A DNA stretch of 64,000 bases from an uncultured Syntrophomonadaceae bacterium (GTDB taxonomy: Bacteria; Bacillota; Dethiobacteria; DTU022), in the NCBI GenBank assembly GCA_964389365.1, contig CAYMDO010000001.1, forward strand, positions 5,938 through 69,937, read 5' to 3'. Shown in pieces: positions 51,592 to 58,869 of the stretch. The notes under the pieces are model-generated. The model was not told where the DNA came from. It saw only the letters and a list, made by a program, of their open reading frames with translations, and did no database searches. The translations under genes and the position numbers were made by a program. Each line of letters starts with the position of its first letter. Position 1 is the stretch's first letter.

Positions 51592-52038
51592 TTAATCCTG
51601 CTTCTCTTTTTCAGGTTCTTCCTCCGTTTCTCCCTCGGCGCTCGGCACGTTGATACCCTGAACATTAATATTGATAGTCTCCACAGTTAAACCGGTAGTT
51701 TTTTCAACGCTGGCGCGGACCTCTTTTTTTAGTTTGTTCGTAGCATCCACGATGGATGTTCCGTATTCAGCAATAACATTCATATCTATAACGACCTTAT
51801 CTTCATTCACTTGAACCTTGATTCCCCTGGTTAAATCGCGGCGCCCAAGTTTCTCGGCGATACCTCCAACCAGTCCGCCGCTCATACCGGCAATGCCCGG
51901 AACCTCGCTTGATACAAGACTTACTATCACACCAATTACTTCTGAAGAAATTCGAATGCTGTCGCCTTCTTTTGCGGGATCATTCTTTAAAACAACATCC
52001 ACTGGCTCTATTGCTTTTCCCTTTTCGTTTTTATCCAC
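51592..52038 (-). CDS. Asp23/Gls24 family envelope stress (alkaline shock) protein
   Basis: Family core in ...VIGVIVSLVSSEVPGIAGMSGGLVGGIA.... Acidic low-complexity C-terminal tail. 148 aa. Confidence 0.85.
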   Translation of the reverse strand: MDKNEKGKAIEPVDVVLKNDPAKEGDSIRISSEVIGVIVSLVSSEVPGIAGMSGGLVGGIAEKLGRRDLTRGIKVQVNEDKVVIDMNVIAEYGTSIVDATNKLKKEVRASVEKTTGLTVETININVQGINVPSAEGETEEEPEKEKQD

Positions 52039-52125: not shown

Positions 52126-52154
52126 CGAATATTTACTACATTATATTATCTTAA
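52126..52154 (-). promoter_or_regulatory. Perfect-consensus sigma-A promoter (TTGACA -17- TATAAT) aimed at asp23
   Basis: The minus strand reads CTCTTGACA gtgctatattaagataa TATAAT G. The -35 is at 52149-52154 and the -10 at 52126-52131. That leaves ~80 nt to the asp23 start. Confidence 0.5.
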
Positions 52155-52275
52155 TATAGCACTGTCAAGAGAAGTGAAAACGGTAAAGCGCGCCAACGCG
52201 CAGCTGGCTTACAGAATGGTCGGCTTAATGCAGAAAGCTGTTTCTCGTGCAGGCGTTAGCTTGACAGCATAAATC

Positions 52276-53552
52276 ATGACGGAAGAAGAAAAAGAAAAGA
52301 AGGAACTCACGTTGAAGCTAAATCTGGATGAAGAGCTTGAGCCGGGCGCAGATGAACGGAAAAACTTCGGCTACGCTGCAATTTTGAAAGTGTTCCACAA
52401 GTTGGAGCTTGATCATTTTTTAACAACAAGGCGAGGAATGAGGCTTATAAGTTTAATACGAAATCGATTATGCTTTTATTGGTGGTCTCCGGGCTTCTTG
52501 CCCCGGGCTCGAAGGGCAAGGCTTATCAGGATAGACACCGTTACTTTGAGCGCTTTAATTTTTCGGTTACCGATCTCTACCGCGCTCTTTCACATTTTGC
52601 GGCAATCGCTAAAGATTGCCAGCGTCATATCCACGAGCATGTTGTTCAAAAATACGGCAGTAATGTTAAGACTATCTATTACGGTGTGACTAACTTTTAC
52701 TTTGAGATTGATCAGGCTGTTGAACTGCGTAAATATGGCCGCTTAAAAGAACATCGCCATAATCCATTGGTACAGATGGGACTGGCCATGGATGCTGACG
52801 GGGTTCCTTTGTGTTATGAAATCTTTCCGGGAAATAAGCTTGACAAAGAGACCTTTCGCTCTGTAATTGGCGGGGTGCGTAAGAACTATGATACCGGTAG
52901 GATAGTGGTGGTTGCCGATATGGAGGTAATCACTGGTGATAATATCTATTATCTTACCGGTGGCAAGAACAGAAACGGCTTAGTAGCCAACCTTCAGCAG
53001 TACAGCCGAACCACTTCTTACGGGGAGGCTAAGTACGTTAAAAACTTAGTGTTTGACAAAAAGACCGGTGAAATCCTTAATGCAAAGGCAGAGCCCTGTT
53101 TTGATTATGAGAAGCTTGAACAAGAACAGCTCTATGACGGTTATTATGCGATTGTCACCAGTGAGCTTGAGATGTCGGAACAGCAGATTATTGATACTTA
53201 CCGCGGCCTGTGGGAGATCGAGGAAACTTTCAAGATCACCGAAGGTGCTCTTGAAGCGCGGCCTGTTTTCCTCTCCCGCGAGGAGCGGATTAGCGCGCAC
53301 TTTCTTTCCTGCTTCATAGCACTTGTGATCATCTGGCTTATTCAAAAGCTAACCTACAGGCGCTATTCTGCAGAAAAGATCGTTGAAGCTTTAAGCAAAA
53401 TTGCCTGCTCCAATGAGCAGGACAACCTTTATCTTTTTGATTATAGAAGTGAAATTTCTGATGCCATCGGCAAGGCCCTGGGGATCGATTTCACTCGCAG
53501 AAGGATGCAGTTAGGTGAGGTGAAAAATATTTTGGCAAAAGCTAAAAAATGA
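52276..53552 (+). mobile_element. IS1634-family transposase remnant (frameshifted, internally deleted, no recognisable terminal inverted repeats)
   Basis: Two overlapping frames (52276-52689 and 52413-53552) together give the IS1634 pattern ...NFGYAAILKVFHKLELDHF/FNNKARNEAYKF...YGVTNFYFE...KEHRHNPLVQMGLAMD...PGN...VVAD...YDGYYAIVTSE...YRGLWEIEETFKITEGALEARPVFLSREE. The frame break is at a T6 run (52415-52420). The segment between the second-D region and YDGYYA is ~100 aa short of intact relatives. Confidence 0.7.
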
Positions 53553-53652
53553 GTCTGTTCCCTACATATTTATGATAAATCATAAAAGCCGCAAACCCTT
53601 TATCCATAGGGGTTACGGCCTTGTTTTTGCTCAATTTTCCGTCAAAGTCAGG

Positions 53653-53681
53653 ATAATATAATCTAAATATAATACTGTCAA
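53653..53681 (-). promoter_or_regulatory. Second copy of the asp23-type sigma-A promoter (TTGACA -17- TATTAT), facing into the IS remnant
   Basis: The minus strand reads CTCTTGACA gtattatatttagatta TATTAT. It forms a ~30 bp imperfect direct repeat with 52126-52173 (roughly 24/30 identical). Confidence 0.4.
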
Positions 53682-53812
53682 GAGGTGGTTTTGGAAGCAC
53701 TGCAAAACAAAAACAAATAAATCTTCACTTTCAAATAATGTTATAATTAGCCAGGCTTTTGTCAATACTGACAATTGAAAATTTCTTTATTCGAAGAAAG
53801 GGATGACCCCCT

Positions 53813-55600
53813 TTGACTAGGTTGATCCTGATTAAAGACTCAGTGCAACAGGTTGCTGAAGCAGTTACCGCTGCCCTGCAAATTGAAACTGAAATCATTG
53901 ACAACAGCTTAACGATTGTGGCCGGCACCGGCCGCTATAAGAAAAAAATAGGCCTCCAGGAAGAGGACGGGGATCTTGATTCGGGTTTCATCTATGGACA
54001 GCTTTTAAAAAGCGGGGAGCCCTACATCAATGATAATCCCAGTCCGGACCCTCCTTACGGGGCCAGGGAGAACGAACAGGCGGAAATATGCTGTCCGATC
54101 AATCTAGACGGTGATATTATTGGCCTTATTGCCTTGGTTGCCTTTAATCAGAAGCAAAAAAGAAAACTGCTTTCCAAAAGAGAAAACAATCTTTCCTTTT
54201 TATCACGCATGGCTTTTCTGATTGCTTCGAAAGTGGCCCAGGTTGAAATTGCCAACGAAATGAGCATGATAGTTGAAAATATTCGCGAAGGAATCCTGCT
54301 TACTAACAATTGCGGCCTAATCACCAGTTGTAATTCGGCAGCAGAAAGAATCCTATCCGTAAGCAAGGACGACCTGATCGGAACCTCAATTTCCGATTTA
54401 TGGGGTGATATCCCAATTGACGAAGTCCTGTTCAGGAAGATCCGCTATGAAGATCTTGAGACAATTTATATGGATACCGATAAACACCAGAGGCATCTCA
54501 TCATCAGTGCGGACCCGATCCTTATTGATGACCCGAAAGATAAAACCAACAGCAAAATCTGCACCGGGGCATTGGTAACTTTTAGAGGATTTCAGGAAAT
54601 GAAGAAAAAAATCTACAATATGACCGACAAGCAGCGTGCAGTAAGATTTACTGACATACTGGGCAATAGCCCTCAAATTCGTGAAAGCATTGAACGCTCA
54701 ATGATGATCGCTGAAACAAATTCGACAATTTTGATTACCGGCGAAAGCGGTACAGGTAAAGAACTTTTTGCCAGGGCCATTCATTTTAACAGTCAGCGCA
54801 AGGCAGAACCTTTTATCACAGTCAACTGCGGGGCTATTCCGGAAACTCTTTTGGAAACTGAATTATTTGGCTATGACAGCGGAGCTTTTACCGGTGCTCA
54901 AAAAGGGGGTAAGGCCGGTAAGTTTGAGATCGCCCACAAAGGGACTATCTTCTTAGATGAGATTGGCGATTTGCCTCTTCATCTCCAGGTTAAGTTGCTT
55001 CACGTTTTACAGCGCCGTGAAGTGGAAAGGGTTGGCAGCAACCAAGTTATATCTGTCAATGTCCGGGTTCTTGCCGCTACTAATCATAATCTAAGTCAAA
55101 TGGTAGAAGACGGTGAGTTTCGCGAAGATTTATACTACAGATTATGTGTCATCCCACTGCATATTCCCTCTTTACGAGAAAGAAAAGAAGATCTAGAAAC
55201 CCTGCTCTTTTATTTTCTTGATAAATTTAACCGCATCCTTGGTAAAAATATTAAAGGCTTTGAAGCAGACGCTCTTGCTGTATTTAAAGCCTATGACTGG
55301 CCGGGAAATGTCCGCGAGCTTGAAAATGCCATGGAGTATGCGGCAAGCTTTGAAAGAGGGGCAAGAATTAGTATATCCAGTATTCAACCACGTATTCAGC
55401 AAGTTAATAAGCCCGAAAGATCTGCATCTTTACCGCTCAGGAGCGGTTTAAATCATATGGAGAAGGAAGTTATCCTGCAACAGCTAAAACAAACAGGCTT
55501 TTCCACTGCGGGGAAGAGGACGGCGGCCATAAATCTTGGCATTAGCGAATCAACCCTCTACAGGCGCATCCGGAATCTTGGTATAAAACCGGATAGTTAA
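53813..55600 (+). CDS. Sigma-54-dependent transcriptional activator with N-terminal GAF/PAS sensory domains
   Basis: AAA+ sigma-54 interaction domain (GESGTGKE, GAFTGA, ...RELEN) and a C-terminal Fis-type HTH. The N-terminal ~300 aa have GAF- and PAS-like composition. TTG start with AAAGGGA RBS. Confidence 0.85.
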   Translation: MTRLILIKDSVQQVAEAVTAALQIETEIIDNSLTIVAGTGRYKKKIGLQEEDGDLDSGFIYGQLLKSGEPYINDNPSPDPPYGARENEQAEICCPINLDGDIIGLIALVAFNQKQKRKLLSKRENNLSFLSRMAFLIASKVAQVEIANEMSMIVENIREGILLTNNCGLITSCNSAAERILSVSKDDLIGTSISDLWGDIPIDEVLFRKIRYEDLETIYMDTDKHQRHLIISADPILIDDPKDKTNSKICTGALVTFRGFQEMKKKIYNMTDKQRAVRFTDILGNSPQIRESIERSMMIAETNSTILITGESGTGKELFARAIHFNSQRKAEPFITVNCGAIPETLLETELFGYDSGAFTGAQKGGKAGKFEIAHKGTIFLDEIGDLPLHLQVKLLHVLQRREVERVGSNQVISVNVRVLAATNHNLSQMVEDGEFREDLYYRLCVIPLHIPSLRERKEDLETLLFYFLDKFNRILGKNIKGFEADALAVFKAYDWPGNVRELENAMEYAASFERGARISISSIQPRIQQVNKPERSASLPLRSGLNHMEKEVILQQLKQTGFSTAGKRTAAINLGISESTLYRRIRNLGIKPDS

Positions 55601-55670
55601 TATCAGGTTTCTACAATAATTAAAATTAAACGGCCGTCCTGCAAAAAATAAGCAGTAACGACCGCATTTT

Positions 55671-57017
55671 TTATCCGACCAGGTTGCAAACGATCTCCCG
55701 AAAAACTGCCGTGTGCTGATCTATATCCTCATTGCTGGTTTGTGGCGAAATAAGTGCCATGTTATGAAATGGAGTCATCAGGATGCCCCTGTTCAAAGCT
55801 GCAAGGTGCATGTAGCGGTCCAACTCCGTATCAATCGCTGCTGCAGCCTCATGGCCATTACGCGCCGGCTCCCGCCTGAACCAGTATTCAGAACGACAAC
55901 CGAGATTTGTTACATTCCAGGGCAGATCAAATTCCCTGATCACATCATTAATACCCTCGACAAAGCGATCAGCCAGGGGAATCGTGATGTCATATGCTGC
56001 CTGGGTTAATACTCTTTCTAAAGTTACACGTATGGCAGCTACCGAGAGGGCATTTCCGGCCAAAGTTCCACCAATTCCGCCGGTATCACAATCCTCTATT
56101 TCAATTGAATTCTGGACCATATCGGCCACAGTTTCCGAAAAACCATAAACCGCCGCCGGAATTCCTGAAGCGATCGGCTTACCAATGGTCAGGATATCTG
56201 GTTCCAAATTTTCCAGGGCTGTATACCCGCCAGGGCCGGCACAGATAGTGTGGGTTTCATCGATGATCAGGAGTGTGCCGGTTTTCCTGGTCAGTTCACG
56301 TAGAGCCAGGTGATAACCCGGATCAGGATGGATAATGCCGATATTAGTCATCACCGGTTCAGCCAGCACGCAGGCAACATCTTCTTCAGCCAGCGCTTTC
56401 TCCAGGGCCGAAAGATCATTGAACTCAATTACTCTAGTGGTCATTGCAGGATCCACCGGTGGGCCAAGGTTACCCTGTCTTGCTTTTATCTTACTGTCAG
56501 GGTAAAGGGTTATAAAACTTTCGTCAACCGACCCGTGATAGCAGTAGTTGTAAACTAAAATTTTACCTCGGCCTGTGATATGCCTGGCCAGCCTAATTGA
56601 AAACCGGTTAGCATCGGTTGCAGTCAGGGCAAACTGCCAGTAGGGGAGTCCGAAGCGTCGCTGCAATTCAGCACCAACATAGATTGAGTCTTCCGTTGGC
56701 AGCATTAGGGTTGTGCCGTTCGCAATTCGCCTGGTGATTGCTTCAAGAACGGCATCCGGTGCATGACCGGTCATAGCGCCCGTATCGCCAAGGCAAAGAT
56801 CCAGGTAACGATGACCATCTACATCAGTAAAATGCGCACCCTTTGCCCAATCAACAAATATCGGGTAATCCCCGGCCCATTTAACCATCCAGTTCATCGG
56901 CACTCCGCCAAGAAGATTGACCTTGGCTTTTTCAAATAACTCCTGAGATCGGGGATGATTTTTAACAAACATTTTTCGTTCTCGGTTTAACAACTCGGGG
57001 AGTCTTTTCCCGTACAT
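55671..57017 (-). CDS. Class-III PLP aminotransferase, HemL (GSA aminomutase)-like subgroup
   Basis: PLP-lysine context ILTIGKPIASGIP resembles HemL's LTCLGKIIGGG. It has an unusual LLIIDETHT in place of the DEVMTGFR-type motif. The N-terminus aligns with HemL from ...SQELFEKAKVNLLGGV. An internal start at MFVKN (56972) is possible. Confidence 0.8.
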   Translation of the reverse strand: MYGKRLPELLNRERKMFVKNHPRSQELFEKAKVNLLGGVPMNWMVKWAGDYPIFVDWAKGAHFTDVDGHRYLDLCLGDTGAMTGHAPDAVLEAITRRIANGTTLMLPTEDSIYVGAELQRRFGLPYWQFALTATDANRFSIRLARHITGRGKILVYNYCYHGSVDESFITLYPDSKIKARQGNLGPPVDPAMTTRVIEFNDLSALEKALAEEDVACVLAEPVMTNIGIIHPDPGYHLALRELTRKTGTLLIIDETHTICAGPGGYTALENLEPDILTIGKPIASGIPAAVYGFSETVADMVQNSIEIEDCDTGGIGGTLAGNALSVAAIRVTLERVLTQAAYDITIPLADRFVEGINDVIREFDLPWNVTNLGCRSEYWFRREPARNGHEAAAAIDTELDRYMHLAALNRGILMTPFHNMALISPQTSNEDIDQHTAVFREIVCNLVG

Positions 57018-57067
57018 AATCTAAAGAATCACACCCTTCGAAAATATTTTTTCTGGCAGATAATAGC

Positions 57068-57083
57068 GCAATAGTTATGCCAA
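57068..57083 (-). promoter_or_regulatory. Sigma-54 (-24/-12) promoter for the aminotransferase gene
   Basis: The minus strand reads TGGCAT-AACTA-TTGCG, with GG and GC at the correct spacing (consensus TGGCACG-N4-TTGC). It lies ~40 nt upstream of the ATG at 57017. Confidence 0.5.
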
Positions 57084-57326
57084 CGATGAACAGGGCAATA
57101 TTTGCATTATCAGAAGAAAAAAGGCATTAAACCAGTGTTCTATGTCAACCCTGACAAATATCACTTCACAATTGACTGTTAGTCAGCCAATTCAAACCGC
57201 ATGAAAAGCAGGTTACACATAATAAAAAAAGCAGATGGTTTTACAGGACCTTTTATAACCGCCCTTACCGACAAAACCTGCAACTTTTTTAATTAATTCA
57301 GCGCATTAAGTCCTTAATAATTAGAA

Positions 57327-57342
57327 CGGCATGATAATTGCA
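57327..57342 (+). promoter_or_regulatory. Sigma-54 (-24/-12) promoter for the NhaC-family transporter gene
   Basis: cGGCATG-ataa-TTGCA has one mismatch in the GGCACG element and exact N4 spacing. It lies ~40 nt upstream of the ATG at 57382 (AAGGAGG RBS). Confidence 0.55.
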
Positions 57343-57381
57343 CAAAAAAATAACATTTAGATATTTAAAGGAGGTTTTCTA

Positions 57382-58869
57382 ATGCAGGAACCAAAGCTCC
57401 AGACAGAAGCCCCAGGCCGGGGAAACTACAGCACGCACTACAAAACTTACGCCATTTTAATTTTATTATTCCTGGTCGCCCTCTTTCTAATTCCTAAGGA
57501 GAGTGATTCTTACCAAGCACTGAGCCTTATACCCGCCGCTTTTCTCTTAATCTTTATCTTCTACACAAAACGCATCCTAGAGGCCCTGACAATCGGCGCT
57601 TTACTGGGTTATGTCATGAAATATGGCATAGGTTTTTTTGAGCCCTTTAGCTCTGAACTGCTAAATATTATGATGAATGAGAGCATCGCCTGGCTGATCA
57701 TTGTTTGCGGCCTGATGGGCAGCATTATTGCCCTGATTGAAAAAAGTGGAGGAGCCTATGCTTTCGGTGAATGGGTATCGAAGAGGGCAAAGACCAAAAA
57801 AAGTACTCTGCTTTGGACCTGGGTTCTCGGGATGGTTATCTTCATCGATGATTACCTCAACTGCCTGACCATCGGCTCATCGATGACCAGGGTGACCGAT
57901 AAACACAAGGTTTCACGTGAATACCTGGCCTATATCGTAGACTCGACAGCCGCCCCCACCTGTGTGTTGGTACCGGTTTCAACCTGGGCCATCTTTATCG
58001 GCATCCTGATGGTTGAGAATGGTCTGGGCTCCGGTGACTCGGGCATTGCCGAATTCATTAAAACTATTCCCTTTAACTTCTATGCCTGGTTCGCCGTGAT
58101 CATTGTTCCCCTGGTAATTCTTGGGGTTATCCCAGTTTTCGGCCCGATGAAGTCAGCTGAAAGAAGAGCCCAGGAAACCGGTGTTCTTGCCCCTCCGGGC
58201 TCGGAAAAAATTGATATGAAAGCCGGGGAAACATTCGAAGTTCCATTAAATCCAAATGTCTGGTTCTTCTTTCTGCCGATTATCATCCTGGTCGGCGCTA
58301 CCATCTACTTTGATCTCAGCATGCAAATGGGCGTCCTAGCCACCCTGGCGTTTATCTTTGTCTATTATTTAATCAGCAAGGTAATCACTCCGCTTGACTA
58401 TGCCGATATGGTAGTCCTGGGTGTAAAAAATATGTTATTTCCTCTTTCTCTGGTTGTTCTTGCTTACTGGTTTGCTGCTGCCAGCGAGGAAATCGGTTTT
58501 GTCAGTTACATGATCGAAATTGGTGAACGTTTTATGACCCCGGAGTTTTTACCGCTGGTTATATTCATCATTTTTGGCATCACTGAATTTATCATGGGCA
58601 TCAGCTGGGGTATGTATATTGTCGCTCTGCCGATCGTCATCCCGGTAGCTATCAGCCTGGGCGTTAACCCCTACCTGGCCGTCGGCGCAGTCTGCTCGGC
58701 CGGAATATGGGGTAGCCATATCTGCTTCTATTCCGATGCCACGATTCTAACCTCTGCCGCTACCGGCTGTGAAAACTTCAGGCACGCCATCACGCAGCTA
58801 CCTTACGGTTTTATCAGCTTTGTTTTGGCCGCTATAGCCTTTGTAATTGCCGGTCACCTGCTAATTTAA
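57382..58869 (+). CDS. NhaC-family transporter (Na+/H+ antiporter family, also containing amino-acid/organic acid exchangers)
   Basis: 495 aa polytopic protein with NhaC family segments (...DDYLNCLTIG...YIVDSTAAPTCVLVPVSTWA...). Confidence 0.8.
   Translation: MQEPKLQTEAPGRGNYSTHYKTYAILILLFLVALFLIPKESDSYQALSLIPAAFLLIFIFYTKRILEALTIGALLGYVMKYGIGFFEPFSSELLNIMMNESIAWLIIVCGLMGSIIALIEKSGGAYAFGEWVSKRAKTKKSTLLWTWVLGMVIFIDDYLNCLTIGSSMTRVTDKHKVSREYLAYIVDSTAAPTCVLVPVSTWAIFIGILMVENGLGSGDSGIAEFIKTIPFNFYAWFAVIIVPLVILGVIPVFGPMKSAERRAQETGVLAPPGSEKIDMKAGETFEVPLNPNVWFFFLPIIILVGATIYFDLSMQMGVLATLAFIFVYYLISKVITPLDYADMVVLGVKNMLFPLSLVVLAYWFAAASEEIGFVSYMIEIGERFMTPEFLPLVIFIIFGITEFIMGISWGMYIVALPIVIPVAISLGVNPYLAVGAVCSAGIWGSHICFYSDATILTSAATGCENFRHAITQLPYGFISFVLAAIAFVIAGHLLI

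Follow-up and report, generated by a model that had tools for sequence, protein, structure and literature searches.

The window, that is, the whole 64-kb stretch of DNA analysed here, contains a gene for a sigma-54-type enhancer-binding protein (EBP; 53813-55600, plus strand; 595 amino acids, with a TTG start codon) and, beyond it, two divergently transcribed genes that appear to be its targets. One of these (55671-57017, minus strand; 448 amino acids) encodes a class-III aminotransferase, and the other (57382-58869, plus strand; 495 amino acids) encodes a transporter of the NhaC/Na+-H+ antiporter family (Pfam Na_H_antiporter, 1e-28). The EBP matches the Pfam families Sigma54_activat (4.8e-71), AAA_lid_14, PAS and HTH_8, the last being a Fis-type HTH; at the N-terminus, a weak GAF-like region is followed by the PAS sensor. 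The Walker A (GESGTGK), GAFTGA and Walker B motifs are all intact, that is, an EBP with a preserved AAA+/GAFTGA module and a DNA-binding domain is encoded near both putative target genes. The best NCBIfam model for this protein is PrdR, the activator of proline reductase in Clostridioides difficile, which aligns with residues 145-588 (PAS, AAA+ and HTH). The score of 422 bits falls short of the cutoff of 795, the 140 N-terminal residues are unmatched and there are no prd genes in the vicinity; membership in the PrdR family was rejected.

The aminotransferase belongs to Pfam Aminotran_3 and to the HemL-like NCBIfam subfamily PRK07046 (652 bits against NF005453, with a cutoff of 425), and is linked to an orthologous EBP in 11 loci. 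Its nearest solved structure, 5ykr, is annotated as 'probable aminotransferase', and a literature search on this PDB entry retrieved nothing relevant. The transporter gene is syntenic in three related loci (L001-L003). In JGI/IMG, cluster mates of the transporter carry the name 'tetracycline resistance efflux pump'. This name is probably an over-annotation because the transporter scores only 73 bits against the NCBIfam model Tet(35), far below the cutoff of 750, and because the gene is part of a sigma-54 catabolic module.

Both putative target genes are preceded by sigma-54 (-24/-12) promoters. The aminotransferase promoter, TGGCATAACTATTGC (57082-57068, minus strand), matches the consensus exactly and is invariant in the sister genomes described below. 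The transporter promoter, CGGCATGATAATTGC (57327-57341, plus strand), deviates from the search pattern at one position and retains GG-N10-GC in all sister genomes, including the variants CGGTATGATAATTGC and CGGTACGATAATTGC. The GG and GC dinucleotides of both promoters lie 10 bp apart, as expected for TGGCAC-N5-TTGCW, and are kept at orthologous positions. Transcription is predicted to start near 57057 on the minus strand and near 57353 on the plus strand. A six-frame translation of the 64-kb window contains no RpoN-box peptide, the mark of an rpoN gene.

The palindrome TGTCA-N4-TGACA occurs exactly twice in the entire window (dinucleotide-preserving shuffles of the same sequence yield a mean of 0.09 exact matches and reach at least two in 1 of 100 cases), once between the divergent genes and once in the leader of the EBP gene. 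The intergenic copy, which we denote UAS-1 (TGTCAACCCTGACA, 57143-57156), is a perfect 5+5 dyad with the 4-bp spacer ACCC. A weaker site, UAS-2 (CTTCACAATTGACT, 57164-57177), follows at a distance of 21 bp; it shares the TCA-N4-TGA core and deviates from the consensus at the outer positions (C...T). These sites, starting at 57143 and 57164, form the only pair of TCA-N4-TGA cores at 20-21 bp spacing in the 64-kb window, with 0.02 such pairs expected. UAS-1 is separated from the minus-strand promoter, measured to its edge, by 60 nt and from the plus-strand promoter by 170 nt; for UAS-2, the distance to the plus-strand promoter is 149 nt. Relative to the predicted transcription starts, the centres of UAS-1 and UAS-2 would lie, respectively, ~93 bp and ~114 bp upstream on the minus strand and ~203 bp and ~182 bp upstream on the plus strand.

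Several other features were observed in the same intergenic region. A possible lone third half-site, (T)GTCA/TGTC, at 57181-57188, just past UAS-2, is weakly conserved in the sister genomes; its alignment is ambiguous, and it lies outside the 20-21 bp register. The 60 nt that separate the minus-strand sigma-54 promoter from UAS-1 include an A-rich stretch, AGAAGAAAAAAGGCA (57110-57127), with similar A-runs in the sister genomes; this stretch may be an intrinsic bend that aids short-range looping. A conserved block, CCTTTTAT (57249-57256), sits about halfway from the enhancer to the plus-strand sigma-54 promoter; it is invariant in the window and in L001-L003, is found in L081 and is absent from L083, and it could be a site for an accessory or bending protein.

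Genome and metagenome scans identified six sister loci (L001, L002, L003, L081, L082 and L083; a further locus, L084, is a duplicate of L003) in which the EBP is 81-83% identical to that of the window and the gene order is the same wherever the contig reaches far enough. In the four-genome alignment of the intergenic region (A1), 39% of the columns are invariant, and the only 14-column windows in which all 10 half-site positions are invariant correspond to the two sigma-54 promoters and the UAS-1 dyad. The half-site columns of UAS-1 and the flanking A's are the same in all four genomes, with the spacers ACCC, ATTT, AATC and AATA. This invariance test was applied to four-genome alignments, and the three metagenome loci L081-L083 were checked for the presence of the sites, with which they agree; UAS-1 was found in L081 and L083 as well. 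The UAS-2 block TTCA-N4-TGA is also kept in the sister genomes, exactly 21 bp from the first site.

The original prediction, made from the sequence of the window, had recognized the palindrome that we call UAS-1 and correctly located it between two sigma-54 promoters, both of which are found in the sequence, but placed it at 57133-57146, 10 bases off its true position, and estimated its distances from the minus-strand and plus-strand promoters at ~55 bp and ~190 bp, compared with the measured 60 nt and 170 nt. A second palindrome, TGACTGTTAGTCA, for which the positions 57163-57175 were given, likewise exists, at 57173-57185, but is not kept in the sister genomes, which read TGAAGTATTTGAT, TGACTATTTAGCT and TGAAATATTTAGT. 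Only its left arm, TGA(C), is conserved, because this arm is the right arm of UAS-2. Accordingly, TGACTGTTAGTCA was rejected as the functional partner of UAS-1, and the conserved site at 57164-57177 takes its place.

Beyond the sister genomes, orthologous loci with EBPs that are ~50% identical to that of the window were found in MAGs of Anaerovoracaceae and other Bacillota and in the isolate Sinanaerobacter chloroacetimidivorans. In this distant group, the PRK07046 aminotransferase gene and the EBP gene are divergently oriented, and an APC-family permease gene lies downstream; the aminotransferase and permease genes each have their own sigma-54 promoter with an exact match to the consensus. 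When the window pattern was searched with one mismatch allowed, 20 matches were found in the distant loci, 16 of these no more than 250 bp upstream of a sigma-54 promoter, in zones that make up 3.3% of the sequence of these loci (nominal P of 1e-20, an overstated value because the loci are phylogenetically related). An unbiased scan of 18 promoter-upstream regions for every inverted dyad of 3-mers, with spacer lengths from 0 to 16 bp, returned TCA-N4-TGA as the top motif, with 37 occurrences and at least one in each of the 18 regions (background, 0.37 per kb). In all 18 regions, two such cores are 20 or 21 bp apart, and the distance between site and promoter is 61-150 bp, within the range of roughly 60-250 bp that is characteristic of enhancers. 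Thus, the symmetry and phasing of the sites, a perfect 5+5 dyad in the window with a second site at 21 bp, recur throughout the distant group. The consensus of the sites is T-n-TCA-N4-TGA-n-A, and the spacer is 4 bp in each of the more than 40 sites.

A matrix trained on the distant loci alone ranks the leader copy first in the window and UAS-1 seventh. The low rank of UAS-1 is explained by the preference of the matrix for AT-rich spacers, given that the spacer of UAS-1, ACCC, is GC-rich; the spacer is therefore best treated as N4. The target sets of the two lineages are alike in kind, an aminotransferase and a transporter, whereas the genes are arranged differently and the transporters come from different families. 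The transporters are not orthologous, belonging to the NhaC family in the window group and to GABA-permease-like members of the APC family in the ~50% group (for example, L006, 7904-9607). In L004, there are two APC copies, one of these in an operon with the aminotransferase. Several distant loci also carry a gene for a MerR-family regulator that diverges from the APC permease gene (L006, 9673-10464, plus strand; similarly, L008, L010, L012 and L013), with a TTGAC-type promoter that has a long spacer and is located just past the enhancer sites; this gene is absent from the window group.

The leader copy of the palindrome, TGTCAATACTGACA, matches TGTCA-N4-TGACA exactly at 53760-53773, precisely where it had been reported, and its distance to the TTG start codon of the EBP gene, previously estimated at ~40 nt, is 39 nt. 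It is a single site and the proposed autorepression operator. Upstream of it lies an extended -10 element of the form TGnTATA(A/C)T, TGTTATAAT (53739-53747, plus strand), that is, a predicted sigma-A-type promoter of the EBP gene, from which transcription would start at ~53754, so that the site would occupy about +6 to +19. The site was found in all six sister genomes for which this region is available, in each case exactly 12 nt downstream of the extended -10 element. In the corresponding alignment (A2), where 27% of the columns are invariant, it is the only fully invariant dyad (10/10 half-site columns), and its spacer varies. No -24/-12 promoter was found before the EBP gene, and for this reason negative autoregulation through promoter occlusion is the most likely role of the site. 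In 12 of 12 distant loci, the -35 box of the EBP promoter (TTGTCA-16/17-TATAAT-like) is made up of the corresponding strong site; the conservation of TTGTCA upstream of these genes is in part due to this role. Both layouts thus place the bound EBP on the core of its own promoter, which argues for negative autoregulation. One distant locus (L012) has neither a divergent sigma-54 promoter nor an aminotransferase gene at this position and nevertheless retains the sites at the EBP promoter.

Two further observations pertain to the surroundings of the leader. A small palindrome, CTTTATTCGAAGAAAG (53785-53800), which folds into a hairpin in the predicted leader, lies beside the ribosome-binding site of the EBP gene and is not conserved in the sister genomes. 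Upstream, an insert of ~1.5 kb (52140-53684) with a DDE transposase gene (52470-53552, plus strand) is located between an Asp23-family gene (51592-52038, minus strand) and the EBP leader; it is absent from L001-L003. An imperfect 32-nt direct repeat borders the insert (52140-52171 and 53653-53684; 84% identical). In the relatives, the Asp23 gene is preceded by a minus-strand sigma-A-type promoter element (the reverse complement of TTGACA-17-TATTAT), which is found in each copy of the repeat, so that the copy on the right is now directed into the insert.

The interpretation of the dyads as binding sites of the adjacent EBP has to be weighed against other explanations. The putative targets are nitrogen-compound catabolic genes, and we take the half-sites TGTnA/TnACA to resemble TnrA/GlnR boxes and the 14-mer to resemble, loosely, a cre site, so that the dyads could be operators of some other, non-EBP regulator encoded elsewhere, with the EBP binding a different sequence. 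We consider this very unlikely. A TnrA/GlnR box is TGTNA-N7-TNACA, 17 bp in length, whereas the spacer is N4, not N7, in all the sites described here; a CcpA cre site has a central CG (in TGWAANCGNTNWCA), which these sites lack, their centres being variable (ACCC, ATTT, AATC, ATAC, AAAA and others). Moreover, the motif occurs only together with one recognition helix. The sequence LG(I/V)SESTLYRRIR is common to the window and distant groups, SESTLYRRIR being identical in all motif-bearing loci, and in the next-nearest EBPs (L011, L016, L017 and L019), where the helix is S[LR]ATLYRK, the site pairs are absent. The loci share no other conserved regulator gene, and the search for an alternative dyad that the EBP might use upstream of the 18 promoters returned only derivatives of the same motif (TGA-N10-TCA, CAA-N2-TTG and TCAA-N2-TTGA) and generic, far weaker A/T-rich dyads. 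Because the motif tracks the helix, no other regulator is shared and no other dyad is available, we assign the motif to the adjacent EBP. Even less credence, indeed next to none, can be given to reading the dyads as palindromes that arose by chance or as sigma-A -35-like elements, with no role for a regulator. On the opposite strand, TGTCAA does read TTGACA, and the leader copy can be fitted into a minus-strand TTGACA-16-TAACAT (53765-53738); a separate conserved TGTCAAG (53676-53682) is the -35 box of a good minus-strand promoter, TTGACA-17-TATTAT, and for this element alone we accept such a reading. For the two main sites, we rejected it: the intergenic TTGACA (57148-57143) has no -10 box after it, and L001 does not keep the minus-strand -10 at 53743-53738. 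A -35 role would also fail to account for the conservation of the second arm, the pairing at 20-21 bp and the location of the motif ahead of sigma-54 promoters in all 18 regions, and the expected numbers given above (0.09 for the dyads and 0.02 for the pair) speak against chance. The claim of the original prediction that the dyad is a UAS of the EBP is thus supported by its invariance in the sister genomes, its pairing in all 18 regions and its tie to a single helix.

The most serious rival is limited to the leader copy: the intergenic pair would still be an enhancer, and the site at 53760-53773 would be a non-functional relic or a small hairpin in the 5'-UTR, with no autoregulation. Such a relic, left over from an arrangement like that of the distant group, is conceivable. 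In that group, the main role of the sites that precede the EBP gene is that of a UAS for the divergent aminotransferase promoter, and the window lineage has one site before this gene, without a sigma-54 promoter; furthermore, GabR of B. thuringiensis, an analogous PAS-type EBP, protects a repeat region upstream of gabT and does not bind its own promoter (PMC4279683). We nevertheless regard this explanation as unlikely. A relic would not be expected to persist as the sole fully invariant dyad, with a variable spacer, in an alignment that is mostly divergent, nor to keep a fixed 12-nt offset to the extended -10 element in 6 of 6 genomes, and L012 independently retains sites at the EBP promoter in the absence of a divergent target. 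As for a hairpin, the fold of the leader is not significant (z = -1.8; 10 of 200 shuffles fold equally well), and no Rfam match was detected at E <= 1 in the region 53300-57600; a leader RNA element was therefore rejected. We thus favor an operator at the leader site. The autoregulation that the leader copy had originally suggested is supported by the position of this copy within the core of the sigma-A-type promoter of the EBP gene and by the retention of the sites in L012, and is most likely negative, as judged from the layout of the promoters.

The predicted UAS motifs of 39 groups of Clostridiales EBPs were compiled by Nie, Dong and Yang in 2019 (PMC6615313), fifteen of these groups being described as TGT-N10-12-ACA. 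All sites reported here are TGT-N8-ACA and hence belong neither to that class nor to the NifA-type UAS (TGT-N10-ACA). Sites of the type TATGTCAAATTGAGATG and TATGTCACCTTGACATG in Table S3 of that study (PMC6615313), which come from the AorR/AguQ rows with an uncertain row assignment, are similar in having the same half-sites (TnTCA/TGAnA), in occurring several per promoter beside a gene for an EBP with a Fis-type HTH and in lying upstream of TTGGCAT-N5-TTGCT promoters, at distances that are typically 100-250 bp; they differ in the spacer, which is 3 bp rather than 4 bp. A regulon consisting of a PRK07046-type aminotransferase and a transporter is not among the 39 regulons, and the word 'aminotransferase' is absent from the text and supplement of that article. 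A Terrisporobacter homologue (L019; 37% identical and probably PrdR-like) has the helix SRATLYRK instead of SESTLYRR and is found without the site pair.

Parallels to the proposed arrangement exist among well-characterized sigma-54 systems. For XylR at Pr/Ps on the TOL plasmid and for NtrC at glnAp1/glnAp2, the UAS and a sigma-70-type promoter overlap (with XylR, the promoter of its own gene), so that the same bound protein activates the sigma-54 promoter and represses the sigma-70 promoter. The distant group is arranged in exactly this way, the site being the -35 box of the EBP promoter, although the proteins, the motifs and the phyla are unrelated. In the window lineage, unlike in these systems, the operator is detached from the enhancer, 3.4 kb away from it, and lies downstream of the -10 element rather than on the -35 box. 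At zraP/zraSR of E. coli, ZraR has one activator-binding region between two divergent sigma-54 promoters, like the intergenic pair described here; it differs in being a two-component response regulator with another motif and in having its own operon among the two sigma-54 targets. The RocR/rocDEF system of B. subtilis combines a PAS-AAA+-HTH EBP, a class-III aminotransferase, an amino-acid permease, a -24/-12 promoter and repeated upstream sites. RocR and GabR, like the EBP of the window, are PAS-AAA+-HTH EBPs of Firmicutes that adjoin a class-III aminotransferase gene under a -24/-12 promoter preceded by repeated sites, but their aminotransferases belong to a subfamily other than PRK07046. 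An EBP from Aneurinibacillus (L011; 46% identity) has a different HTH helix and lacks such sites. GabR was rejected as an orthologue and is considered an analogue only, in a comparison made without a site sequence, none being given in the text of PMC4279683.

Taken together, sequence, statistics, conservation, synteny and co-variation with the HTH helix point with considerable assurance to a scheme in which both dyads are sites for dimers of the adjacent EBP, the intergenic pair serving as a two-site enhancer for both targets and the leader copy serving as an operator for negative autoregulation. Under this scheme, the strong site at 57143-57156 and the weaker one 21 bp away would constitute a single enhancer, with both sites on the same face of the helix. 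These two phased sites would nucleate an EBP oligomer, and once the GAF-like/PAS sensor is relieved by some amine or amino-acid signal, the active AAA+ ring would assemble on the enhancer. Looping of the DNA would then bring the ring to the sigma-54 holoenzyme at the aminotransferase and transporter promoters, so that one enhancer would serve both divergent sigma-54 promoters. EBP bound at 53760-53773 would hinder RNA polymerase at the promoter of its own gene, resulting in negative autoregulation. There is a very slim chance that one EBP oligomer bridges the leader site and the enhancer 3.38 kb away, looping out the EBP and aminotransferase genes; if so, autorepression would be mechanically coupled to the activation of two divergent sigma-54 promoters.

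The association of the aminotransferase with a transporter whose family is swapped between the lineages suggests that the module imports and transaminates an amine or an omega-amino acid. We lean towards the view that this EBP represents an undescribed orthologous group, with a compact T-n-TCA-N4-TGA-n-A enhancer that defines an 'import and transaminate' module; this reading is considerably more likely than bridging and less surprising. The switch would be of an ordinary bacterial type that leaves the present understanding of sigma-54 control unchanged. It would add to the 39 catalogued Clostridiales groups a missing group of sigma-54 activators whose hosts are uncultured Bacillota (one sister locus is labelled Syntrophomonadaceae), the Anaerovoracaceae MAGs and Sinanaerobacter chloroacetimidivorans. 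It also yields a testable recognition rule, namely, two T-n-TCA-N4-TGA-n-A dyads 20-21 bp apart, that would let the full regulon be read from any genome in the group. By tying an uncharacterised HemL-like PRK07046 aminotransferase to a dedicated transporter, the module may narrow the search for the substrate of this enzyme. Finally, the comparison of the two lineages presents an apparent case of a site redeployed after gene rearrangement, in which a combined enhancer and -35 box would have given way to a shared bidirectional enhancer and a separate operator.
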